Of a stretch of 64,000 bases of DNA, positions 21,043-44,673 are shown piece by piece; positions within the stretch are counted from its first letter, which is position 1, and each line of letters starts with the position of its first letter. The translations under genes were made by a program, and so were the position numbers. Where the stretch lies: positions 756,105 to 820,104 of the forward strand of contig CAVVQC010000005.1 of the NCBI GenBank assembly GCA_963750275.1. Reading direction: 5' to 3'. This stretch comes from an uncultured Chloroflexia bacterium (GTDB lineage Bacteria > Chloroflexota > Chloroflexia > Thermomicrobiales > UBA6265). The notes beneath the pieces were generated by a model. The model made no database searches, was not told the origin of the DNA, and saw nothing but the letters and a program-made list of their open reading frames with translations.

Positions 21043-21960
21043 CTACCCTTTCACACCTCCTGCCATCAAGCCACTGACCAGCGCCCGCTGAACAATGGCG
21101 AAGCCGATAATGATCGGAATGATGCTAATGATTCCGCTGGCGCTCAACACGCCCCACGGCATTTGGAATTCACCCACCATCAACTGCAATCCAACCGGCC
21201 AGGTGCGGGCGCCATTGGCGGTTGTGAGCAGCAGCGCCCAGACATATTCATTCCAGGCGCCGATAGCGATGAACACAGTAGTTGCGGCAATGCCCTGCCG
21301 GGCCAACGGCAGCACGATGCGGATGAGCGCCCCCAACCGGGTCGAGCCGTCGACACGTGAAGCCTCTTCCAGATCGGGCGGGATGCCATCGAAAAATCCC
21401 TTCAACATCCAGACACACAACGGCAGCAGGAAGGTCGTATAGGTCAGGGCCAGACCGAAGTGGCTGTCGAACAGTCCAAGATTACGGAGCATGATGAACA
21501 AGGGAATCAGCAGCAAGGTGAACGGAAACATCCGGATGACCAGATAAAAGATCATCAACCCTCCGCGACCCCGGAAGCGATAGCGCGAGATGCTGTAGGC
21601 AGCGATCGTCCCGATAACGACCGACATCAGCACCGTCATACCGGTCACGATGGCGCTATTTTTCAGGAGTCGCGGGTACCCTGATCGCTGCCAGAGGGTG
21701 ACGTAATTGTCGAAGTTGAGCGAATGCGGCAGCCAGGTGAAATCGCGCGAGACGATCTCGTTCTCGGTCTTGAACGAGGTCAGTACCGTCCAGACGATCG
21801 GCCCGATCGCGAACAGCACCACGATGATCACCACGACTGCCGCCATGACATCGAAGAAGTGCCGTGTCCGCCGCAATGAGGCAAACGGCAACCAGGATCT
21901 GGCCGGCTCTGCCGCTGCCACATGGGAAAAGGGACCACTTTGCTCTGCGACCACGCTCAT
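21043..21960 (-). CDS. carbohydrate ABC transporter permease (MalG-like)
   Basis: It has 6 TM helices and the EAA-loop block EEASRVDGSTRLGALIRIVLPLA. Confidence 0.85.
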   Translation of the reverse strand: MSVVAEQSGPFSHVAAAEPARSWLPFASLRRTRHFFDVMAAVVVIIVVLFAIGPIVWTVLTSFKTENEIVSRDFTWLPHSLNFDNYVTLWQRSGYPRLLKNSAIVTGMTVLMSVVIGTIAAYSISRYRFRGRGGLMIFYLVIRMFPFTLLLIPLFIMLRNLGLFDSHFGLALTYTTFLLPLCVWMLKGFFDGIPPDLEEASRVDGSTRLGALIRIVLPLARQGIAATTVFIAIGAWNEYVWALLLTTANGARTWPVGLQLMVGEFQMPWGVLSASGIISIIPIIIGFAIVQRALVSGLMAGGVKG

Positions 21961-21965
21961 CGGGC

Positions 21966-22925
21966 CTACTCCCTGGTCACGCCCGAGGCGCGCACATAGA
22001 CAACAGTGAACGCCATCAGGCAGAAGAGCGCCAGCACGGAAAGCGCTGCCGCATAGCCAAAGTCAAAACGTAAATACGCGGTCTGGAACCCATACAACGC
22101 TAATGTTTGCGTAGCGTTTCCCGGACCGCCCCCCGTGAGCACCAGCAGAATGTCGGGCGAATTGAAAAGTCCGATGACGCGCAGGATCGTGGCACCCACG
22201 ATCACCGGCATTAGCATCGGAATCGTGATATCCCGGAAGCGTTGCAGTGTGCCGCTCCCGTCGACACTCGACGCCTCGTAATACTCACTTGGAATCGCAT
22301 ACAACCCAGCCAGGAAGAAGAGTGTGAAAAAGGCGAAGTTCTTCCAGAGCTCGACCGCCAGCACCTCGTAGAGTGCGGTATTGGGATTGATGAACCAGGC
22401 GTGTCCACGCTCCACCAGGCCGATACTGCCCAAAATCTCATTGACTACGCCGAGACGGGAATCGAGCATCAGGCGCCACATGTTGGCCGAGACCACCGAC
22501 GGCAGCAACCAGGGAATGAGCACCAGCACCGCGGCAATGCGGAACCCCTTCAGCGACCGGTGCAACGCCAGCGCGGTGATCATGCCGAGAATGAACTGGC
22601 TGATCGATCCAACCGTCACCCAGATCAAGGTGTTTTTCAACGCGATCCGAATCGTCTTGTCATCCAGCATGTCGCGATAGTGCTCGAGTCCGATCCAGGG
22701 GGTGCCCAGCGCCGGGCGGTTGAGCCGGTATTCACGGAAGCTGAGCAAAACTCCGCTAATGACCGGATAGACCACCACAGCGGCAACCAGGATCAGACTC
22801 GGAATCAACAGCATGTAGGCCCAGTACTTCCCCTCGATCAATCGGACCACGCGGTTGGAAGACGTGGGCTTGTCGCGGGTCTGCTCGGTGGCGCGCACCT
22901 GCTGGGTCGATGCCTGTTCGCTCAT
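21966..22925 (-). CDS. sugar ABC transporter permease (MalF-like)
   Basis: It has TM helices and the EAA loop YEASSVDGSGTLQRFRDITIPML. Confidence 0.85.
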   Translation of the reverse strand: MSEQASTQQVRATEQTRDKPTSSNRVVRLIEGKYWAYMLLIPSLILVAAVVVYPVISGVLLSFREYRLNRPALGTPWIGLEHYRDMLDDKTIRIALKNTLIWVTVGSISQFILGMITALALHRSLKGFRIAAVLVLIPWLLPSVVSANMWRLMLDSRLGVVNEILGSIGLVERGHAWFINPNTALYEVLAVELWKNFAFFTLFFLAGLYAIPSEYYEASSVDGSGTLQRFRDITIPMLMPVIVGATILRVIGLFNSPDILLVLTGGGPGNATQTLALYGFQTAYLRFDFGYAAALSVLALFCLMAFTVVYVRASGVTRE

Positions 22926-23746
22926 GCCGTTGCTGCTCCTGCCACGGCATCGACAGGCGATAACCCGGGAAATCGCTCGGTCACGGCATTCGCGGTGTAG
23001 CGGATGTGTTCGGCCATTTCACGCGCGGCTGCGTCTGGATCGCGCGCAGCGATCGCCTCGGCAATGGCGCGGTGATGCTGAATAGCCGAGCGTACCGAAC
23101 CGATCCGATCGGAAATCAGCGGCACGATATCTTGTTGCATCTGCCGCGCGGTTGCGACGGCAACTTCGAAGTAAGGATTTCCGCTTGCGCGCGCAATTGC
23201 GGCGTGAAAGGCGTTGTCATAGGCGCTGAAGGCATCCAGCTCGCTTGCTTCAACCGCGAGCGTGGTGGCCTCGGACGCCGCGACGATATCGGCAAGCTGG
23301 CGCTCGCTGCGGCGCACTGCGGCCAGCGCGGCCGATTCCACTTCCAACGTGCGCCGGAACTCGAAAAGCCGCTCGACCGATTCCGCATCGGGAGAAACCG
23401 AAAGGGTGAAAGCGCGCGTAACGGTTGGCACCGTATTGAGGACGTAGATACCGCTCCCCTGGCGCGCCTCGACCAGGCCCAACGCTCCCAGCACTTTGAT
23501 CGCTTCGCGGATGACGCCGCGGCTCACTTCGAAGGCTGTGCTGAGCTCGCGCTCGGTTGGCAACCGGTCCCCTTCCCCGATCTGCCCCGTTTGGATCGAC
23601 GCGGCAATCTGCCGCACCACGCCCTCGTAGGATCGAGTCACGGTGATCGCGTGATAGGGCGGTCCGCCACCCGGCGAACCGCCGGATGCCGGCGTCGTCT
23701 CTACCCAGCCGGCATCGCCACTTCTGCTGGCATTCGTCGTCGACAT
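22922..23746 (-). CDS. GntR-family (FadR/FCD subfamily) transcriptional regulator
   Basis: HTH: LPTERELSTAFEVSRGVIREAIKVLGALGLVEARQGSGIYV. This is followed by an all-helical FCD-like domain. It overlaps the permease start by 4 nt. Confidence 0.85.
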   Translation of the reverse strand: MSTTNASRSGDAGWVETTPASGGSPGGGPPYHAITVTRSYEGVVRQIAASIQTGQIGEGDRLPTERELSTAFEVSRGVIREAIKVLGALGLVEARQGSGIYVLNTVPTVTRAFTLSVSPDAESVERLFEFRRTLEVESAALAAVRRSERQLADIVAASEATTLAVEASELDAFSAYDNAFHAAIARASGNPYFEVAVATARQMQQDIVPLISDRIGSVRSAIQHHRAIAEAIAARDPDAAAREMAEHIRYTANAVTERFPGLSPVDAVAGAATA

Positions 23747-23912
23747 GCCACCCCTCGGAGTCAGCTACCAAATCATCTGATTGTCGGACCAATTCCTTCA
23801 GATGGTAGTCAGCGGGTCACGAATTGTCAATTCATGCACCATTTTGTATCTAGCCCACATGGTTGTCACGAGTGAGCCTCCACACAAGAACGCTTCTGGC
23901 GATATGCGCACG

Positions 23913-25307
23913 CTAGCTCTGGCGTTGATACCGCTGCATCAGGGGGGTGACCGAGATTCCATGCACCACGATCGAAACGATGATGGCCGCCAGCACAACA
24001 TCTCCCAGCCGATTCGCATCGGTTTCGTCGATCCCATGGGCAATGGCATACGCAAGGTAATAGATCGAGCCTATGCCTCGAATGCCAAACCAGGACAGCA
24101 ACCGGCGTTGGGTTCGGGGAACCGGCATCCCGACGAGACCGCCCGCGACAGCTAACGGGCGAATGACCAGCATGAGCACCACAACGAAACCAAGGATGAC
24201 GATATCCAACGATCCCGACGTCACCAGCGCCCCGATAAGAATGACAACCGCGACCTCAGCAATGCGCTCGAGCCGCTCGTTGAAACCGAGTACCGCCTCC
24301 GCCATATAAGCGGGCGCTGATTCGGGGCGTATCGCTGCCTCCTCGCCCAGCTCGGTCTCGAGCTCCAGATGGGACGGCGCCTTGGCATCATCCTGGGGAG
24401 CGTTGCGTCGCTCGATCGCCCGGATAGCAAGTCCCGCGGCGAACACCGCAAGAAAGCCATAGGTATGCAGCAGCAATGCGATCCCATACGACAGCGCTAT
24501 CAACCCGAGGGAAAGAAAGTCGTCCAGGCCATGCGCTTCCTGGTAACGCACCCGGAGGCGGAGCATCAGGGAGCCAACTGCCCAGCCGCAGAGCACCCCA
24601 ACGGCCAGCCCTCCAACCATCGCCCAAAGCAGATCGATCGCCACCCAGCGCAGACCGTCGGGACCAAGCTCATGCAATCCGAGCAACCCGAGCCCGAGCA
24701 TCACAAATGGAAAGGCAGTACCGTCGTTGAATCCCGCTTCGCCGGTCAGGCTGAACCGAAGCCGATCGCGGTCATTGGGATCGGTGACCTGAACTTCGGA
24801 GGCGAGAACCGGATCGGTCGGCGCCAGAATGGCTCCCAGGAGCAACGCTGCGCCGAACGAAAGGCCGAGCCCTACGACACCCGCCACCGTTACCAACCCG
24901 ATGGAAATGATCATGGAAAGTGAAGCAAGCCGGATCGGCACACGCCAGATCGGATTACGCCACTCGACGCGCATCTTGAGACCCGCGGTAAACAGCGAAA
25001 CGATGACCGCCACCTCGGTCACCCGTTCGATCAGACCCGCATTGCCCACCAGATCGACATCGAGTAGCCCGATAAACGACGGGCCGAACAGCATGCCAAT
25101 GACCAGATAGATCATCGCGGTGGAGACGGGCAAGCGCTTCAGCACCGACCCAGCCAGCGCCATGCTCAGGAAGAGCACCCCCGCGATGATGTAAATCCAG
25201 ATGAATTCCAAAGGCGTCGAACCTCTTCCTTGGCTGCGTGAAACGCCGCGAGGTGAGGAGATACGGCGAGGTTGCTCAAGCGACTGCCCACGTACCGCTC
25301 TCTCCAA
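23913..25307 (-). CDS. cation:proton antiporter (Na+/H+ exchanger family)
   Basis: The protein is polytopic (IYIIAGVLFLSMALAG.., LGAILAPTDPVLA, FNDGTAFPF). The likely real start is TTG 25211 (GGAAGAGG RBS 9 nt upstream) rather than ATG 25307. Confidence 0.8.
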   Translation of the reverse strand: MERAVRGQSLEQPRRISSPRGVSRSQGRGSTPLEFIWIYIIAGVLFLSMALAGSVLKRLPVSTAMIYLVIGMLFGPSFIGLLDVDLVGNAGLIERVTEVAVIVSLFTAGLKMRVEWRNPIWRVPIRLASLSMIISIGLVTVAGVVGLGLSFGAALLLGAILAPTDPVLASEVQVTDPNDRDRLRFSLTGEAGFNDGTAFPFVMLGLGLLGLHELGPDGLRWVAIDLLWAMVGGLAVGVLCGWAVGSLMLRLRVRYQEAHGLDDFLSLGLIALSYGIALLLHTYGFLAVFAAGLAIRAIERRNAPQDDAKAPSHLELETELGEEAAIRPESAPAYMAEAVLGFNERLERIAEVAVVILIGALVTSGSLDIVILGFVVVLMLVIRPLAVAGGLVGMPVPRTQRRLLSWFGIRGIGSIYYLAYAIAHGIDETDANRLGDVVLAAIIVSIVVHGISVTPLMQRYQRQS

Positions 25308-38784: not shown

Positions 38785-41561
38785 TTATTGCGATGGTAGG
38801 TTGGTCGTGCCTGTTGCCGATACCGCTTCTTCAGGACGCCTGCGAGGCAGCAGCTCATCGAGAACGAAGTTGAAGTTGCCCCTTGTGCTGGGATCTGCCT
38901 TTCGCAGTCGATCCAGGAACAATCCGATGCCGGCTGCTCCAGATGCGAAATCGGCACTTTCTCGCATCGCCTGTTCGCCGGGGAAGCCAGTACCCTCCAA
39001 CGCCCCGATCTGAAACAGCAGCACGCCTTCGGCCGTTTGCCACGCACCAGCACGATGTGTTTCGTTTCCGGTGTACTCCCAGATATCGATGAGAGCATTC
39101 CCAAGTCCCGCGAGTCCATGGAAGAGCTGTGGCATGACCGCGTACTTGTGGCTCACATTGGCAGCTAATGGATCGAGCCATTTCTCAAGGCTGGGATCCC
39201 TTCGGACAGCCAGATAGCGAACCAATGTCGTGATGACTCCGGCCGTACCCGCATCCCAATAGCACCTAGGCGTCTGATTGAAATCTTCCCCATGTACGCT
39301 CACAATAGCGGGAAAGCCGACGAACGCACTATCCTGCCAAACCCCATGAGCCAAGTCAAAGTCTAGCGCTTGCCGCCCGGTGTCAATTGGCTGCTGCAAA
39401 CCTGTCGCCAAGTGGAGGTAGAGCAAAAAAAGCGCCACGCCGCTGCTCCCATAAGCGTAGCCATGCGCCACGGCACCTTCTTGCCCTGGCCAGTGAACCC
39501 CATGGTCGCTTCGCACCGCTGAAGAGATCAGATGGTCGCCCACGCCGACCGCGTCGTCGAGGAACTCATCTCCGTGTCCATTCATCCACATCTTCAGGCA
39601 GGCAAGTCCGTAACCAGCACATCCGTGGAGCACGTCGTGGGATCGAAAAAGCAGCTCATGGTTTCGGACAGAGCGCATGATGTTTAAAGCAACCTCAGGA
39701 AGACCGATTTCACCGGCCACCCAAGCCACTCCTGCTTGCCCCATGTACAGCCCAGGCGGATAAAGTTCGTTGGTAACTTGCCGGCGGGTTAGCCACGCCG
39801 ACAACCCTTCGGGAACCTCGCCAGTCAGTTGATAAATCGCATGCAGGACACCGGCAGTGCCATACGCTACTGATAGCGGATTCGTCTCGAACACGGTCAG
39901 GTCTCCCGGACAGAGGCGGTCCTCACGCTCTACGTCGGCGGTGCCGATGAGGTAATCCGCGACTGACCTGACGATGCGATCCAAATCCGCATGCAATACA
40001 TATCGTCCGTTACGCGTCAATCGCTCTCCCGCTGGTGTGGCGAGCCGCGGGATACGCGCCACCAATGAGCCAGGACGGCACGCGAGCTCCGAAATCGAGC
40101 GCTTGACCGACTCGGGGAAGACGCAGAAGGCTCGGTCAGCAGGCCATCCACCAGGGAAATTAACTCGTCTGAAAGTCCAAGGTCCTGCTTGAGTTCCTCG
40201 AGAAAGCCGGGCCTCGCCGTTGGATACAGATGGGTGAACCCGGTGGCCAGCATGATGCTCCCGAATATGAGGGATCCGAGCGCGTAGAAGTCGTTCGTCC
40301 GGTCGCAGATTCCTGAGAGCAGCGTGCCTGGAGACGTCACGCCGGGGGTATTGAGCCCGACCTGTGGGTCCTGCCCTTCTTCGACTGCGGACTCGAGATC
40401 GACGATGCATACCTTGTCAGAGCCGGAGACCAGTACATTCGTGAAGGACAAATCGCCAAGCACGATGTTTAGCTCATGCGCTGAAACAATGGCTTGAGCG
40501 ATCTGCAGCCACAGCTGACACATCGTTTCGAAGTACGCGTTCAGCTCGCTCCTAGAGGTTCGTCCATGATAGAGCGGATGCGTCCCAATGCTGAACTTGC
40601 CAATGTGGTCGCCCCTCACGAATTCCTCCGCGAGGAATCGTGCCCACCTTCGCGAAAGAACTCGATTGGCTTGACAAAGTAGCCGGTATCGGCCAGCCGG
40701 CCAAGCAAGCGCCACTCCTTCTCAAGAAGCTCGATTGAATCCAGGCCGAAACGTCCGACCTCGATATGAGGCCGTGACTCTTTATGACCACATCGAGCCT
40801 GACACTTTATCTCGTGCCAGGTAGACGCCGCCACGATTGGAAAATCGAAGCGCTGACGTTACGGAGAAACGTCCGTTGCCAAGATCTACTTCAGCTTTGA
40901 CGGCTGTTGTCGCCTTAGTCGGTACTGGAAACGGATCCTCTGCCCAATCCGGTGGACTCCAGAATGGAAATCGAATATCAGGGACAAGTTCGCCAGTGGG
41001 CGAGCAAATAACTTGACTTTGTGTTCCATCGACCTGCAGCACCGTTCTGGAAAGAAAGCCTCCATACCGATAGTAGACCGTTGACGAACCCGGCCAAGGT
41101 CGATCTGAAAGAATGTACGGGCCGGCGAAATGCTCAAGTGATTCTGCCAGGGCCTGTCCCATGGCAAGGAATTGCGACTGGCTTGCCGGGTATATCGTAA
41201 CGAGCTTGCCGCTCGAGCCGCGTTGCCACATTTTGCTATTTGTTGCGGCAGCGAGCGTGGGGTCCAGAAGGAATTTGAAGGGAGCATTCTGCTCGAAGAG
41301 CAGCGGAAAGACTCGCCCCAGCGCTTCTACCGCATCTTTCGTGAGAACAGAAACATGGATCTTCCAGCCTTGATCCGGGAGCGCTACGTCGTGGGGAGGG
41401 ACCGCAGAATACCAGATTCCACTTCGCTTGAGCTGCCAGCTACCAGGGGCAAGCGCTGAAAATACCGCCAGAAACTCTGAGCTTGGCTGATATCGAGACG
41501 GGCTTTCGAACCATCTGGGGTGATATTGGCTATAAAGGTAAAGACGCTCCCAACTATGCAT
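38785..41561 (-). pseudogene. lanKC: class III lanthipeptide synthetase (LanKC: lyase + Ser/Thr kinase-like + Zn-ligand-less LanC-like cyclase), reading frame broken 3-4 times as assembled
   Basis: Lyase part: ORF 40782..41561 (PDQGWKIHVS, VTIYP, YYRYGGF). Kinase part: spread over ORFs 40552..40791 / 40616..40834 / 40017..40715 (VVIKESRPHIE, LEKEWRLLGRL, FLAEEFVRG, NIVLGDLSFTNVLV, VCIVDLESA). Cyclase part: ORF 38785..40410 (GTAGVLHA, GQAGVAW, LHGCAGYG, YGSSGVALFL, YWDAGTAGV, FHGLAGLG, SGAAGIGLFL). Frame changes occur at ~40781-40797, ~40645-40653 and ~40114-40117 (cccc run). Confidence 0.85.
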
Positions 41562-41649
41562 GCGTGCTAGCCTTTCCCACTCGTGGAGGATCAGCAGGAG
41601 CGTGATCGTCCCTGACCGATTCTCGCCATCGTGGAAACGACTAGCACGC
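41562..41649 (-). promoter_or_regulatory. 9-bp inverted repeat able to pair the sequence abutting the lanKC start codon with an upstream segment (possible translational/processing control)
   Basis: GCGTGCTAG (41562-41570) is the exact reverse complement of CTAGCACGC (41641-41649). In the mRNA the 3' arm ends directly at the AUG and follows the GGGAAAGG RBS. The ~70-nt loop makes this weak evidence. Confidence 0.25.
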
Positions 41650-41708
41650 GAAACCCACCGTTGCGAAAACTAACTGAATGTGGTCATCCGAACCGTCTCG
41701 TCAGATGT

Positions 41709-41930
41709 TTACGCACAGCTATGGTGGTCACAGGACGTGACGCTGACGACAGCAATTTCGTCGTCGAATGTTGCGCCTCCTGCGGAGGGACGGCCGCTCA
41801 GGCGGTCCTGCAGGAGACGTTGCAGATCCAGCACAAGCGGCGGCATGCCAGCTGGCTGGTCTTTAGGGGAGAGAGGCTCTCGCGCTTCTCGACCGGGGGT
41901 TGCGCCACCTTGGGAAGACGTAGACATCAT
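41709..41930 (-). CDS. lanA1: class III lanthipeptide precursor peptide (copy 1)
   Basis: 73 aa: MMSTSSQGGATPGREAREPLSPKDQPAGMPPLVLDLQRLLQDRLSGRPSAGGATFDDEIAVVSVTSCDHHSCA. An AAAGGAG RBS is present, with an LDLQ-type leader motif and a Ser/Thr/Cys C-terminal core. It is co-directional with and 147 nt upstream of lanKC. Confidence 0.8.
   Translation of the reverse strand: MMSTSSQGGATPGREAREPLSPKDQPAGMPPLVLDLQRLLQDRLSGRPSAGGATFDDEIAVVSVTSCDHHSCA
41731..41927 (-). repeat. tandem duplication unit A (lanA1 coding DNA)
   Basis: It aligns base-for-base with 42175-42371 at an offset of 444 nt. By eye, the ~135 nt encoding the leader differ at one position, while the ~60 nt encoding the core carry about a dozen differences. 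Confidence 0.85.
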
Positions 41931-42130
41931 CGGCTCCTTTGATTTGGGCGGCGTTGCGCAATGTGAAGGATGCTGATCGGCTTCATCGGTGCGAATACTC
42001 TATCGACACCGAGAGGGTCAAATGCTCAAAAAATCGAGTTCAACTAATGCAGAGGGACGTGGCTGCCCATTGGTTCGAAGCCGATCAACTCAGGCGGTAG
42101 AGGGGTTATCCATCGATCGGATTTTGGAGA

Positions 42131-42161
42131 CTGTCAGGCCGAATTGATTCGGTTACTGACA
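42131..42161 (-). terminator. stem-loop overlapping the lanA2 stop codon (attenuator/partial terminator candidate)
   Basis: The mRNA reads TGTCAG-TAA-CCGAAT-ca-ATTCGG-c-CTGACA: two 6-bp stems whose 5' arm is the last two codons plus the stop. No U-tract follows. Confidence 0.4.
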
Positions 42162-42371
42162 ACTGTGATGAGAGCAGGACGTGACGCTGACGACGGCGAC
42201 TTCGTCACCAAATGTAGTGCCTCCTGCCGAGGGACGGCCGCTCAGGCGGTCCTGCAGGAGACGTTGCAGATCCAGCACAAGCGGCGGTATGCCAGCTGGC
42301 TGGTCTTTAGGGGAGAGAGGCTCTCGCGCTTCTCGACCGGGGGTTGCGCCACCTTGGGAAGACGTAGACAT
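42153..42371 (-). CDS. lanA2: class III lanthipeptide precursor peptide (copy 2)
   Basis: 72 aa from ATG 42371 (GGAAGGAG RBS 7 nt upstream): MSTSSQGGATPGREAREPLSPKDQPAGIPPLVLDLQRLLQDRLSGRPSAGGTTFGDEVAVVSVTSCSHHSCQ. The ORF-track start at 42407 adds 12 unlikely residues. Confidence 0.8.
   Translation of the reverse strand: MSTSSQGGATPGREAREPLSPKDQPAGIPPLVLDLQRLLQDRLSGRPSAGGTTFGDEVAVVSVTSCSHHSCQ
42175..42371 (-). repeat. tandem duplication unit B (lanA2 coding DNA)
   Basis: Partner of 41731-41927; see that entry. Confidence 0.85.
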
Positions 42372-42411
42372 TATTGACTCCTTCCAGGATAGAGTGGTGG
42401 GCTTCAATCAC

Positions 42412-42440
42412 AGCTTATGTCCACAATAGTCCAAAGTCAA
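42412..42440 (-). promoter_or_regulatory. candidate promoter of the lanA2-lanA1-lanKC unit
   Basis: The minus strand reads TTGACT (42435-42440), a 17-nt spacer, then TAAGCT (42412-42417), ~40 nt upstream of the lanA2 ATG. Confidence 0.35.
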
Positions 42441-42543
42441 TAGCGGCCGAAAAGCTCGACACTCCGGAGATCGGAGATTCCCTATCCCCTCGCTGAATGC
42501 TCAATTAAACGAATAGGTTGGGCCGAACGCTGTTACTCGCATC

Positions 42544-43179
42544 CTAGAACGACGGAGGCGTAATCGCGGCAATCACGATCGCAGGCGCCCCACTCCTGTT
42601 CCCCGCCCGGTGCGGCCGCGACGCATCGATCGTGATGCAATCACCCGCCTGCAAGACAAATTCCGCCCCATCCACCCAGAAGTGCATCTCCCCCTGGATC
42701 ACCACCATCTGTTCTTCCCCCGGATGGGTAAACGGCGCCAACGGTCCCTCCACCCCCGGCCCGAACTCGACCCAGATGAATTCGATCTGATGCCGCAAAT
42801 CGGGACTCATCAGCTCATAGGTCAATGTCGAATTGACCCCCAGCTTCTTGCGCTGATCGGCGCGCACCACCACCGGTTGCTGGCCGGGTTCATCCTCCAC
42901 CAGCTCGCCCTGAAAAAAGGTGCCGATCGGCACCTCCAGTGCCCGCGCCACCGACCAGAGCACATCCAGCGACGGGCTGGACAAACCTCGCTCCACCTGA
43001 CTGATCAAGCTGGTCGACACCCCACACGCCTTCGCCAGCGCCACCGTGCTCATCCGCTGTTCCTGCCGTAATCCCCGGATGATCCCGCCCAGATCGCGCA
43101 GCCGATCCTCCCGCGTTTCAGGGATTCCATCTGTTGTCGTCACTTGGCTGGCGTTCGACATCGCGCTGCCCGTTCCCAA
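42544..43179 (-). CDS. XRE-family transcriptional regulator with C-terminal cupin domain
   Basis: HTH_3: LRQEQRMSTVALAKACGVSTSLISQVERG. Cupin_2: HPGEEQMVVIQGEMHFWVDG..GDCITIDASRPHR. The start is TTG 43179 or ATG 43161. It is divergent from the aminotransferase operon. Confidence 0.85.
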   Translation of the reverse strand: MGTGSAMSNASQVTTTDGIPETREDRLRDLGGIIRGLRQEQRMSTVALAKACGVSTSLISQVERGLSSPSLDVLWSVARALEVPIGTFFQGELVEDEPGQQPVVVRADQRKKLGVNSTLTYELMSPDLRHQIEFIWVEFGPGVEGPLAPFTHPGEEQMVVIQGEMHFWVDGAEFVLQAGDCITIDASRPHRAGNRSGAPAIVIAAITPPSF

Positions 43180-43347
43180 CGTCGGAAAGACTTTGCCTTG
43201 TCAGCCCCTGGCATCGAACCTGAGAACGCAAGAGTCTCGCAATTGACAACCACACTGTCAGTTCATACACTCAGACTGTAATCCGCACCACGTCAATCCA
43301 CAACCCATATGGTTCTTCGACCCGGTAACCCGCCAGGAGCCTCGGCA

Positions 43348-44673
43348 ATGACCGCCACATCCACTGTTACGTCAGATCAGCTTTTCGAGCAGGCGCAAAG
43401 CGTGCTAGCCGCCGGGGTTTCAGCCGGAATGCGGGTCAACCCCTATCTCGGCAAACCCCTCTTCATCGAACGTGGCGAAGGCGCCTACCTCTACGATGTC
43501 GACGGTCGCCGCCTGATCGACTTCAACATGTCGAACGGTGCGGCGCTGCTGGGACACGACCATCCGGCGGTCAAGGAAGCGGTTATGCACGGCGTCGAGC
43601 TCGGCATCATCTGTGCTGCCGAAACGCCCTTCCATGAACAGCTTGCCGCGCGCATGGTCGAGATCATTCCCGCCGCCGAACGAGTGCGCTTTTCCAGCGT
43701 CGGCACCGAAGCCACCGTGGTCGCCCTGCGCGTCGCCCGCGCCGCCACCGGACGCAGCAAGTACCTGAAGTTCGACGGCCATTTTCACGGCTTGGCCGAG
43801 CAATGGCTCTTCAAACGATCAGATCCCTTCGACCAGAACAGCCCGATCGTTCCCAGCTCAGACGGCGTGCCGGCGCATCTCGCCAGCGACATCGTCATGG
43901 TCCCCTGGAACGATGTCGAGGCCTTCGAAGCTGCCATGAAAACGCACGGTGCCGAGCTTGCGGCGGTTTTTTGCGAACCGATCCATTACAACGCCGGCTG
44001 CATCCCACCTGCTCCCGGCTTCCTGGAGCTGCTACGGGAGCGCACCCGCGAGCACGGCGTGATCCTCGTCTTCGACGAAGTTCTCTCCGGCTTCCGCACC
44101 AGTGCCGGCGGCGTTTCGGCTACCTACGGCGTCACGCCCGACCTCACCACCCACGCCAAGGCACTCGCGAACGGCTTGCCGCTCTCGTCGATCTCTGGCC
44201 GTGCCGATCTGATGGCCGAGCTGGTTCCAACCGGTGGAGCCGCCCATAGCGGAACCTACTCCGGCCACCTGCTCAGTGTGCTGGCTGCCCTGGCAACCCT
44301 GGATATCCTGACCGTGCCCGGTGCCTACGACGAGATCAACGCCCGCGCCGACCGGTTCTATGGCCAGATGCAAGAGGTCTTCGACCGCAACGGGATTCCC
44401 GTAAAGGTCCAGGGCAAGGGTGCACGCTTTGGCCTCTACTTCGGTCGCACCGAGCCAGTCTCCACCTGGACCGACGCCTTCGAACACGATCATGTCATGA
44501 ACCGCGCTTTCGTCCAGCAATGCTGGGAACGCGGCGTCACTTTCCACGGCTACACCCAGCAGGGCCCTCCGGGCCACGCGGGCTTTTCGCTGGCGCACAC
44601 CGACGCCGATCTCGATGAATCGTTGAACGTTTTCGATGCCGTGGCCGCCAACCTGGCTGCGGGACGGATGTAA
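43348..44673 (+). CDS. class III (GSA-aminomutase-like) PLP-dependent aminotransferase
   Basis: Start ATG 43348 (AGGAG RBS). Blocks: LFIERGEGAYLYDVDGRRLIDF, VILVFDEVLSGFR, and the PLP-Lys region TPDLTTHAKALANGLPLS. Confidence 0.85.
   Translation: MTATSTVTSDQLFEQAQSVLAAGVSAGMRVNPYLGKPLFIERGEGAYLYDVDGRRLIDFNMSNGAALLGHDHPAVKEAVMHGVELGIICAAETPFHEQLAARMVEIIPAAERVRFSSVGTEATVVALRVARAATGRSKYLKFDGHFHGLAEQWLFKRSDPFDQNSPIVPSSDGVPAHLASDIVMVPWNDVEAFEAAMKTHGAELAAVFCEPIHYNAGCIPPAPGFLELLRERTREHGVILVFDEVLSGFRTSAGGVSATYGVTPDLTTHAKALANGLPLSSISGRADLMAELVPTGGAAHSGTYSGHLLSVLAALATLDILTVPGAYDEINARADRFYGQMQEVFDRNGIPVKVQGKGARFGLYFGRTEPVSTWTDAFEHDHVMNRAFVQQCWERGVTFHGYTQQGPPGHAGFSLAHTDADLDESLNVFDAVAANLAAGRM

Follow-up and report, generated by a model that had tools for sequence, protein, structure and literature searches.

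Class III lanthionine synthetases (LanKC) of the LabKC, RamC, AciKC and CurKC type share a domain order that runs from a RamC_N lyase domain through a Ser/Thr kinase domain to a LanC-like cyclase domain, and the leader recognition motif of class III precursors is defined as (I/L)(L/V)(D/E)LQ. A cyclase without the Cys/Cys/His zinc ligands distinguishes these enzymes from the class IV synthetases (LanL). The locus described here lies in a stretch of 64,000 nucleotides, hereafter the window, of a metagenome contig from a member of the Thermomicrobiales (Chloroflexota). Its synthetase gene, lanKC, follows the same domain order, with the kinase sequence spread over three frames as recorded, and its two precursors, lanA1 and lanA2, carry the LVLDLQ-type leader common to the known class III precursors. 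The locus departs from the known systems in its host, in the distance of its synthetase from the nearest homolog (59% identity), in its precursor cores, which read SVTSCxHHSC instead of the canonical S-x-x-S-x-x-x-C labionin core, and in a recorded lanKC gene that is cut four times, in the kinase domain and the linker, by the loss of a single nucleotide. Most likely these breaks arose as errors in the consensus of a metagenome assembled from long reads (Nanopore-type) at low coverage and are not mutations of the organism.

The lan segment and its products

Together with the gene of a luciferase-like (LLM) monooxygenase, lanKC and the two lanA genes make up a segment at 37.35–42.54 kb of the window, with a GC content of ~0.567 compared with ~0.61 around it. 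The genes, and the four open reading frames (ORFs) into which lanKC is divided as recorded, are the following:

37748..38779, + strand: LLM monooxygenase gene, intact (Pfam Bac_luciferase, 6–308 of 314), convergent with lanKC
38785..41561, − strand: lanKC, class III lanthionine synthetase gene, ~925–926 codons after restoring four missing bases
40782–41561, − strand: lanKC piece 1, matching NF038151 positions 3–245
40616–40834, − strand: lanKC piece 2, matching NF038151 positions 251–298
40017–40715, − strand: lanKC piece 3, matching NF038151 positions 299–478
38785–40410, − strand: lanKC piece 4, matching NF038151 positions 483–832
41709..41927, − strand: lanA1, precursor of 72 aa, intact; leader LVLDLQ, core ...AVVSVTSCDHHSCA
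42153..42371, − strand: lanA2, precursor of 72 aa, intact; core ...AVVSVTSCSHHSCQ

The four pieces of lanKC match the NCBIfam model of class III LanKC (NF038151, 833 positions) consecutively and cover its positions 3–832 overall, and on each of them this model outscores the class IV model. No recorded ORF of the gene combines a length of ~830–930 codons with a score above the NF038151 cut-off of 575 bits; the best piece reaches 270 bits, while the bits summed over the four pieces come to ~669. The RamC_N lyase domain (PF25816) is found in piece 1 (E = 3.8e-59, profile 5–184 of 191), Pfam Pkinase is matched in piece 3 and LANC_like (PF05147) in piece 4 (E = 2.9e-22). The kinase, which corresponds to NF038151 positions 251–478 and contains the motifs GDLSFTNVLV and IVDLES, is spread over three frames as recorded. 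In the cyclase, the motifs YWDAGTAG and LFHGLAG read from the sequence have no Cys at the zinc-ligand positions, these being placed as in NisC/LanC.

When its pieces are stitched together, LanKC is 59% identical to an intact protein of 925 aa (P0001) across 98% of its length, and no closer LanKC was present among the 5.8 billion proteins searched. A scan of GTDB genomes for lanKC orthologs returned relatives at 36–53% identity only, and exact look-ups with the lanKC pieces and with either precursor gave no record outside the source contig.

Both precursor genes, which the original prediction had called intact and which are so, immediately precede lanKC on its own strand, and both 72-aa ORFs contain the sequence PPLVLDLQRLL. 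The lanA2 leader is nearly identical to that of lanA1 in DNA. The cores, SVTSCDHHSCA and SVTSCSHHSCQ, provide Ser/Thr residues and two Cys, with the labionin/lanthionine spacing S-x-x-S-x-x-x-C absent from both, and a Pfam and NCBIfam scan of the two precursors gave no match.

The lan segment is flanked by the gene of an F420-type oxidoreductase and that of an XRE-cupin regulator. In the related contig ena:ERZ25039539:contig_75593 (L006), the same two flanking genes enclose a different insert of 2.3 kb, and the segment at 37.35–42.54 kb has no counterpart.

Four single-base deletions in lanKC

The reading frame of lanKC was followed with our own frameshift-aware protein-to-DNA alignment to eight intact LanKC homologs of 911–926 aa (taken from P0001–P0008 and P0016). 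All eight homologs concur that the frame changes exactly four times, each time by the deletion of a single nucleotide, which bears out the original prediction of three to four breaks within 0.7 kb; further frameshifts or in-frame stops were absent from the gene in this alignment. The sites are as follows:

40795..40796 (alignment ~40792–40795), − strand: lanKC site 1, an incomplete TC between GGC (Gly) and GAT (Asp), one base missing in 8/8 homolog alignments
40781..40782 (alignment 40782–40784), − strand: lanKC site 2, an incomplete AA at the conserved kinase Lys codon (VVIKESRPH), one base missing
40638..40639, − strand: lanKC site 3, an incomplete GA between CAC (His) and TTC (Phe), one base missing
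40105..40126, − strand: lanKC site 4, one base missing in a variable linker, with a placement that differs among homologs

Sites 1 and 2, which are separated by 11–14 nt, had been predicted to represent either two single-nucleotide deletions or one insertion. The alignment across the junction at site 1 reads SG-x-DVVIK, and because the DVVI(K) of the intermediate frame agrees with (D/E)VVIKE, a motif conserved in the homologs, the first of these readings stands; a single insertion, which would remove the conserved VVIK motif, was rejected. Adding one base (A or G) at site 2 recreates the invariant kinase Lys. The next break had also been recognized correctly, although its proposed position, ~40645–40653, is off by ~7–10 nt from the incomplete GA codon at 40639–40638; the homologs carry Ala here, which GCA would fit. 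Site 4 had been assigned to a CCCC run at 40114–40117, and the interval within which the alignment places the deletion contains this run, plausibly as the likeliest place of the loss.

Four missing bases aside, lanKC looks fully conserved. Among 193 columns conserved at ≥90% in 80 full-length LanKC homologs, the stitched protein deviates in 6, compared with 5 (median) or 6.8 (mean) for the homologs themselves, and only 1 of the 37 such columns within the frameshift zone is affected. Its identity to the homologs is even along the whole gene.

Frameshifts elsewhere in the window and in related contigs

The breaks in lanKC belong to a set of 16 or more single-base indels that affect 7 genes of the 64-kb window, with at least 12 of these indels in six other genes:

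7836: histidine kinase gene, insertion
17150: ECF sigma factor gene, deletion
29505: SDR reductase gene, deletion
29872..32266, + strand: LuxR-type AAA-TPR regulator gene, seven single-base insertions (30307, 30629, 30732, 30763, 30800, 30840, 31411)
48526: ABC permease gene, insertion
58448: aldo/keto reductase gene, deletion

Sites were nominated from codon usage plotted by frame and by a Viterbi gene finder that tolerates frameshifts, both of them noisy, and the frameshifts were then called by scanning suspect ORF pairs with Pfam, by reading all three frames and by comparison with orthologs on related contigs. The weakest call is that in the ECF sigma factor gene, which is based on the alignment to its L005 ortholog (score 144), on Pfam matches to regions 2 and 4 and on three-frame reading. 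A possible event at ~914 was left out of the list of 16. Of five events in the aldo/keto reductase gene relative to its L006 ortholog, only the first was counted, because L006 is itself error-ridden.

Four further nominated sites (3837, 22935, 49022 and 53928) proved on Pfam checks to be overlapping gene boundaries and were discarded.

Overall, 7 of the ~55 genes in the window, about one in eight, are broken.

The seven insertions in the regulator gene are supported by 5/5 homologs and leave 0 stops, and the stitched product of 787 aa shares 72% identity, across 98% of its length, with an intact protein of 791 aa (P0177). Five of the insertions fall within 212 bp, at 30629–30840. The local indel density in lanKC does exceed that of most of the window, as had been predicted, but this is an incomplete account, since the regulator cluster is denser than that of lanKC and five more genes carry single frameshifts. 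In-frame stops number 0 across all reconstructed frames of the broken window genes. In the ABC permease gene, codon differences from the L006 ortholog are 52 synonymous to 1 nonsynonymous, and 24:0 downstream of the frameshift, and by these counts (dN/dS ~0) the broken gene is evidently under strong purifying selection.

Three related loci were available for comparison: ena:ERZ25039539:contig_16042 (L005), L006 and GCA_964267655.1 (L007), which match parts of the window at 78–92% DNA identity (85–92% for L006). L006 contains 28 single-base frameshifts of its own (25 of them insertions), arranged in bursts and spread over 7 genes whose window copies are intact, and no stops were found in these seven genes; the lone in-frame stop in L006 is in the XRE-cupin gene, which itself has no frameshift. 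Conversely, the ABC permease gene, broken in the window, is intact in L006. Sister contigs in which different genes are broken, always by single-nucleotide indels and never by stops, display the pattern expected of consensus error. A Logan contig of ~2 kb (L004, run ERR11523665) matches positions 21935–23981 of the window at 99.9% without gaps; it spans no frameshift site and shows that the assembly is accurate in places. Another (P0142, 1309 bp) is too short to extend to the permease frameshift.

The segment of the LuxR-type regulator is missing from L007, and the lan segment has no counterpart in L006; both bursts of indels in the window therefore lie in accessory DNA. Such a location would fit a lower effective read depth and real decay equally.

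In exact look-ups, the proteins of the window trace to a single contig of 824,348 bp present in NCBI and ENA, and their cluster mates are proteins of Thermomicrobiales MAGs. The relatives from ERZ25039539 carry names of the form contig_N, as Flye assigns them. Nanopore-only Flye assemblies with one Medaka round make up the Microflora Danica long-read catalogue, in whose lower-coverage MAGs Nanopore-associated indel errors are reported to persist (PMC12313526). In a benchmark of R10.4 data, bins below ~40-fold coverage needed short-read polishing because indels fragmented gene calls (PMC9262707). We infer a tie of the window to the Nanopore MFD-LR catalogue, as well as the sequencing platform of the source contig and its coverage, and hence the base-calling or polishing origin of the indels.

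Origin and meaning of the frame breaks

Because no fewer than six further genes nearby in the window are broken in the same manner, the breaks in lanKC are most likely consensus errors. Single bases would have been lost or gained at base calling or polishing while the DNA of the organism was unbroken, and the cell would possess an intact class III lanthipeptide cluster with two precursors and one LanKC of ~925 residues. The features of Nanopore-only Flye and Medaka MAGs, as seen in IDEEL-type tests, recur here: the errors are single-nucleotide indels only, many genes are hit, stops or missense decay do not accompany them, and other genes are broken in sister contigs. The likeness is not complete. 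Long homopolymers are typical of high-coverage Nanopore error, whereas the sites in the window lie in short runs or outside homopolymers, and the indels come in bursts of the same sign (4 deletions, 7 insertions), on a platform that is in this case a matter of deduction.

True recent pseudogenisation, in which a horizontally acquired lan segment would be decaying, its synthetase already dead and its precursors not yet hit, is in our judgment unlikely. Decayed biosynthetic gene clusters and the pseudogenes of reductive genomes do present the same picture of a multi-frameshift synthetase beside intact small precursors in an accessory segment. The lan segment is accessory, differs in GC (0.567 vs ~0.61) and is swapped for other genes in L006, and such DNA does decay. 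In addition, the frame breaks also stand in the public record, all four lanKC events are deletions, which matches the deletional bias of bacteria, and their clustering inside 0.7 kb of a 2.8-kb gene is only marginally non-random (p ~0.05), that is, mildly unusual under neutral decay. Natural pseudogenes, however, gain substitutions, stops and larger deletions beside single-nucleotide indels, and none of these is seen in lanKC, nor is there any excess of change at its conserved positions. Decay would furthermore require that 7 of ~55 window genes be indel-only pseudogenes without stops, that a second gene have taken 7 insertions and 0 deletions, and that two independent deletions have fallen 11–14 nt apart in lanKC, and it is at odds with the dN/dS of ~0 in the similarly broken permease and with the 28 reciprocal frameshifts in the sister contig L006.

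The spectrum of the indels bears on the same question. Mutation-accumulation studies give 5–10 substitutions per indel, and ~4% of random substitutions in lanKC are computed to yield a stop. The lack of stops in lanKC alone is not significant (P ~0.2–0.6); over 16 natural indels with that ratio, 3–6 nonsense codons are expected, and the probability of finding none is ~0.04–0.002. The grouping of five of the 7 regulator insertions within 212 bp has p ~0.005 within the gene, and the signs of the indels differ between lanKC (4 deletions:0 insertions) and the regulator (0:7; Fisher p = 0.003). Mutations that arise independently would not be expected to correlate locally in position and sign, as errors in stretches of poor consensus do. 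The original prediction had offered a pseudogene and an artefact as the two possible readings and left the choice open. The dichotomy was sound; with 12 or more similar frameshifts elsewhere and no stops, the recently decayed cluster becomes the minority explanation.

The indels could also be real and yet not the product of gradual decay, if this lineage of Thermomicrobiales undergoes local bursts of same-sign, single-base indels from an error-prone repair or replication patch. We consider this very improbable; if true, such bursts would inactivate accessory genes, for example that of a newly acquired class III synthetase, without leaving substitutions. Similarly improbable is a chimeric consensus, still an artefact, though one of strain mixing instead of low depth, in which assembly or polishing merged the reads of co-occurring related strains and so gave mosaic indels. 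L005 and L006 (85–92% identical to the window) do occur together in one metagenome assembly, ERZ25039539, and both bursts are located in segments without a counterpart at the matching position (the regulator relative to L007, lanKC relative to L006), but the databases searched contain no second lanKC-like sequence above 59% from which such a mosaic could be drawn. Programmed recoding, whereby ribosomal −1 frameshifting or transcriptional slippage would restore the frame at each site, can be dismissed almost entirely: although the four shifts share their sign, such that one kind of slip would mend each, no X XXY YYZ slippery heptamer and no long A/T run is present at any site, and programmed frameshifting of lanKC was rejected on the absence of slippery sites. 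Moreover, four consecutive events would have a negligible yield, LanKC homologs are single ORFs, and unrelated genes show similar breaks of both signs.

If the breaks are consensus errors, as we propose, they are of low interest as biology and useful as an annotation caveat. Taken at face value, the cluster would be annotated as a lanthipeptide locus that is dead, and lanKC would be dropped or split by genome-mining tools; any inference of a pseudogene or of gene loss from the source contig calls for confirmation at the level of reads. On this reading the cluster probably functions in the organism. Correcting the frameshifts would give back a synthetase of 925 codons, and the evidence suggests that the organism possesses a class III system that is intact and has two unusual precursors.

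Single-base frame changes in the window

The LuxR-type regulator gene, the comparator for the frame breaks of the class III lanthionine synthetase gene lanKC, is broken by seven single-base insertions, and one-base frameshifts occur singly in other genes of the window:

29872-32266 (+), LuxR-type AAA-TPR-GerE regulator gene, seven insertions
7836, HisKA_3/HATPase histidine kinase, single frameshift
17150, ECF sigma factor, single frameshift
29505, FabG-like SDR, single frameshift
48526, sugar ABC permease, single frameshift
58448, aldo/keto reductase, single frameshift

The regulator insertions lie at 30307, 30629, 30732, 30763, 30800, 30840 and 31411, five of the seven being packed into 212 bp. 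No stop codons were found in this gene across 29872-32266, and it shares 72% identity with an intact homolog of 791 aa. The sugar ABC permease differs from its ortholog by 52 synonymous codon differences and 1 nonsynonymous difference. Near the end of the erythromycin-esterase gene (2-1060, +), a frameshift-tolerant gene finder suggests a candidate frame change at about 914, just 3′ of the end of the Erythro_esteras domain.

Frameshifts in the sister contig and the sign of the indels

In the sister metagenome contig ena:ERZ25039539:contig_75593 (L006), single-base frameshifts number 28 across the locus at 150-20300, and 25 of these are insertions. They are spread over seven genes, among them those for an aminotransferase, an ABC ATPase, an SBP and an F420 oxidoreductase; all seven are intact in the window. 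Alignment of L006 to window 42544-44672 by blastn gave 41 gap openings over its 2.1 kb. Each indel burst in the window is uniform in sign, with only deletions in lanKC and only insertions in the regulator, and the L006 indels are mostly insertions. The sites in both sequences fall in short runs or non-homopolymer contexts.

The lanthipeptide segment and its precursors

The lanthipeptide segment fills a variable slot, with an F420 oxidoreductase gene on one side and an XRE-cupin regulator gene on the other; in L006 this slot is taken up by a GIY-YIG gene and small ORFs.

37350-42544, lanthipeptide segment with the LLM monooxygenase gene, lanKC and both lanA genes, GC lower, about 0.567
41709-41927 and 42153-42371 (-), two lanA precursor genes

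The precursors matched no family in Pfam or NCBIfam, and the canonical labionin spacing S-x-x-S-x-x-x-C is absent from both cores (SVTSCDHHSCA and SVTSCSHHSCQ). Because the DNA of their leaders is almost identical, the sequence suggests recent duplication or gene conversion of the lanA precursors.
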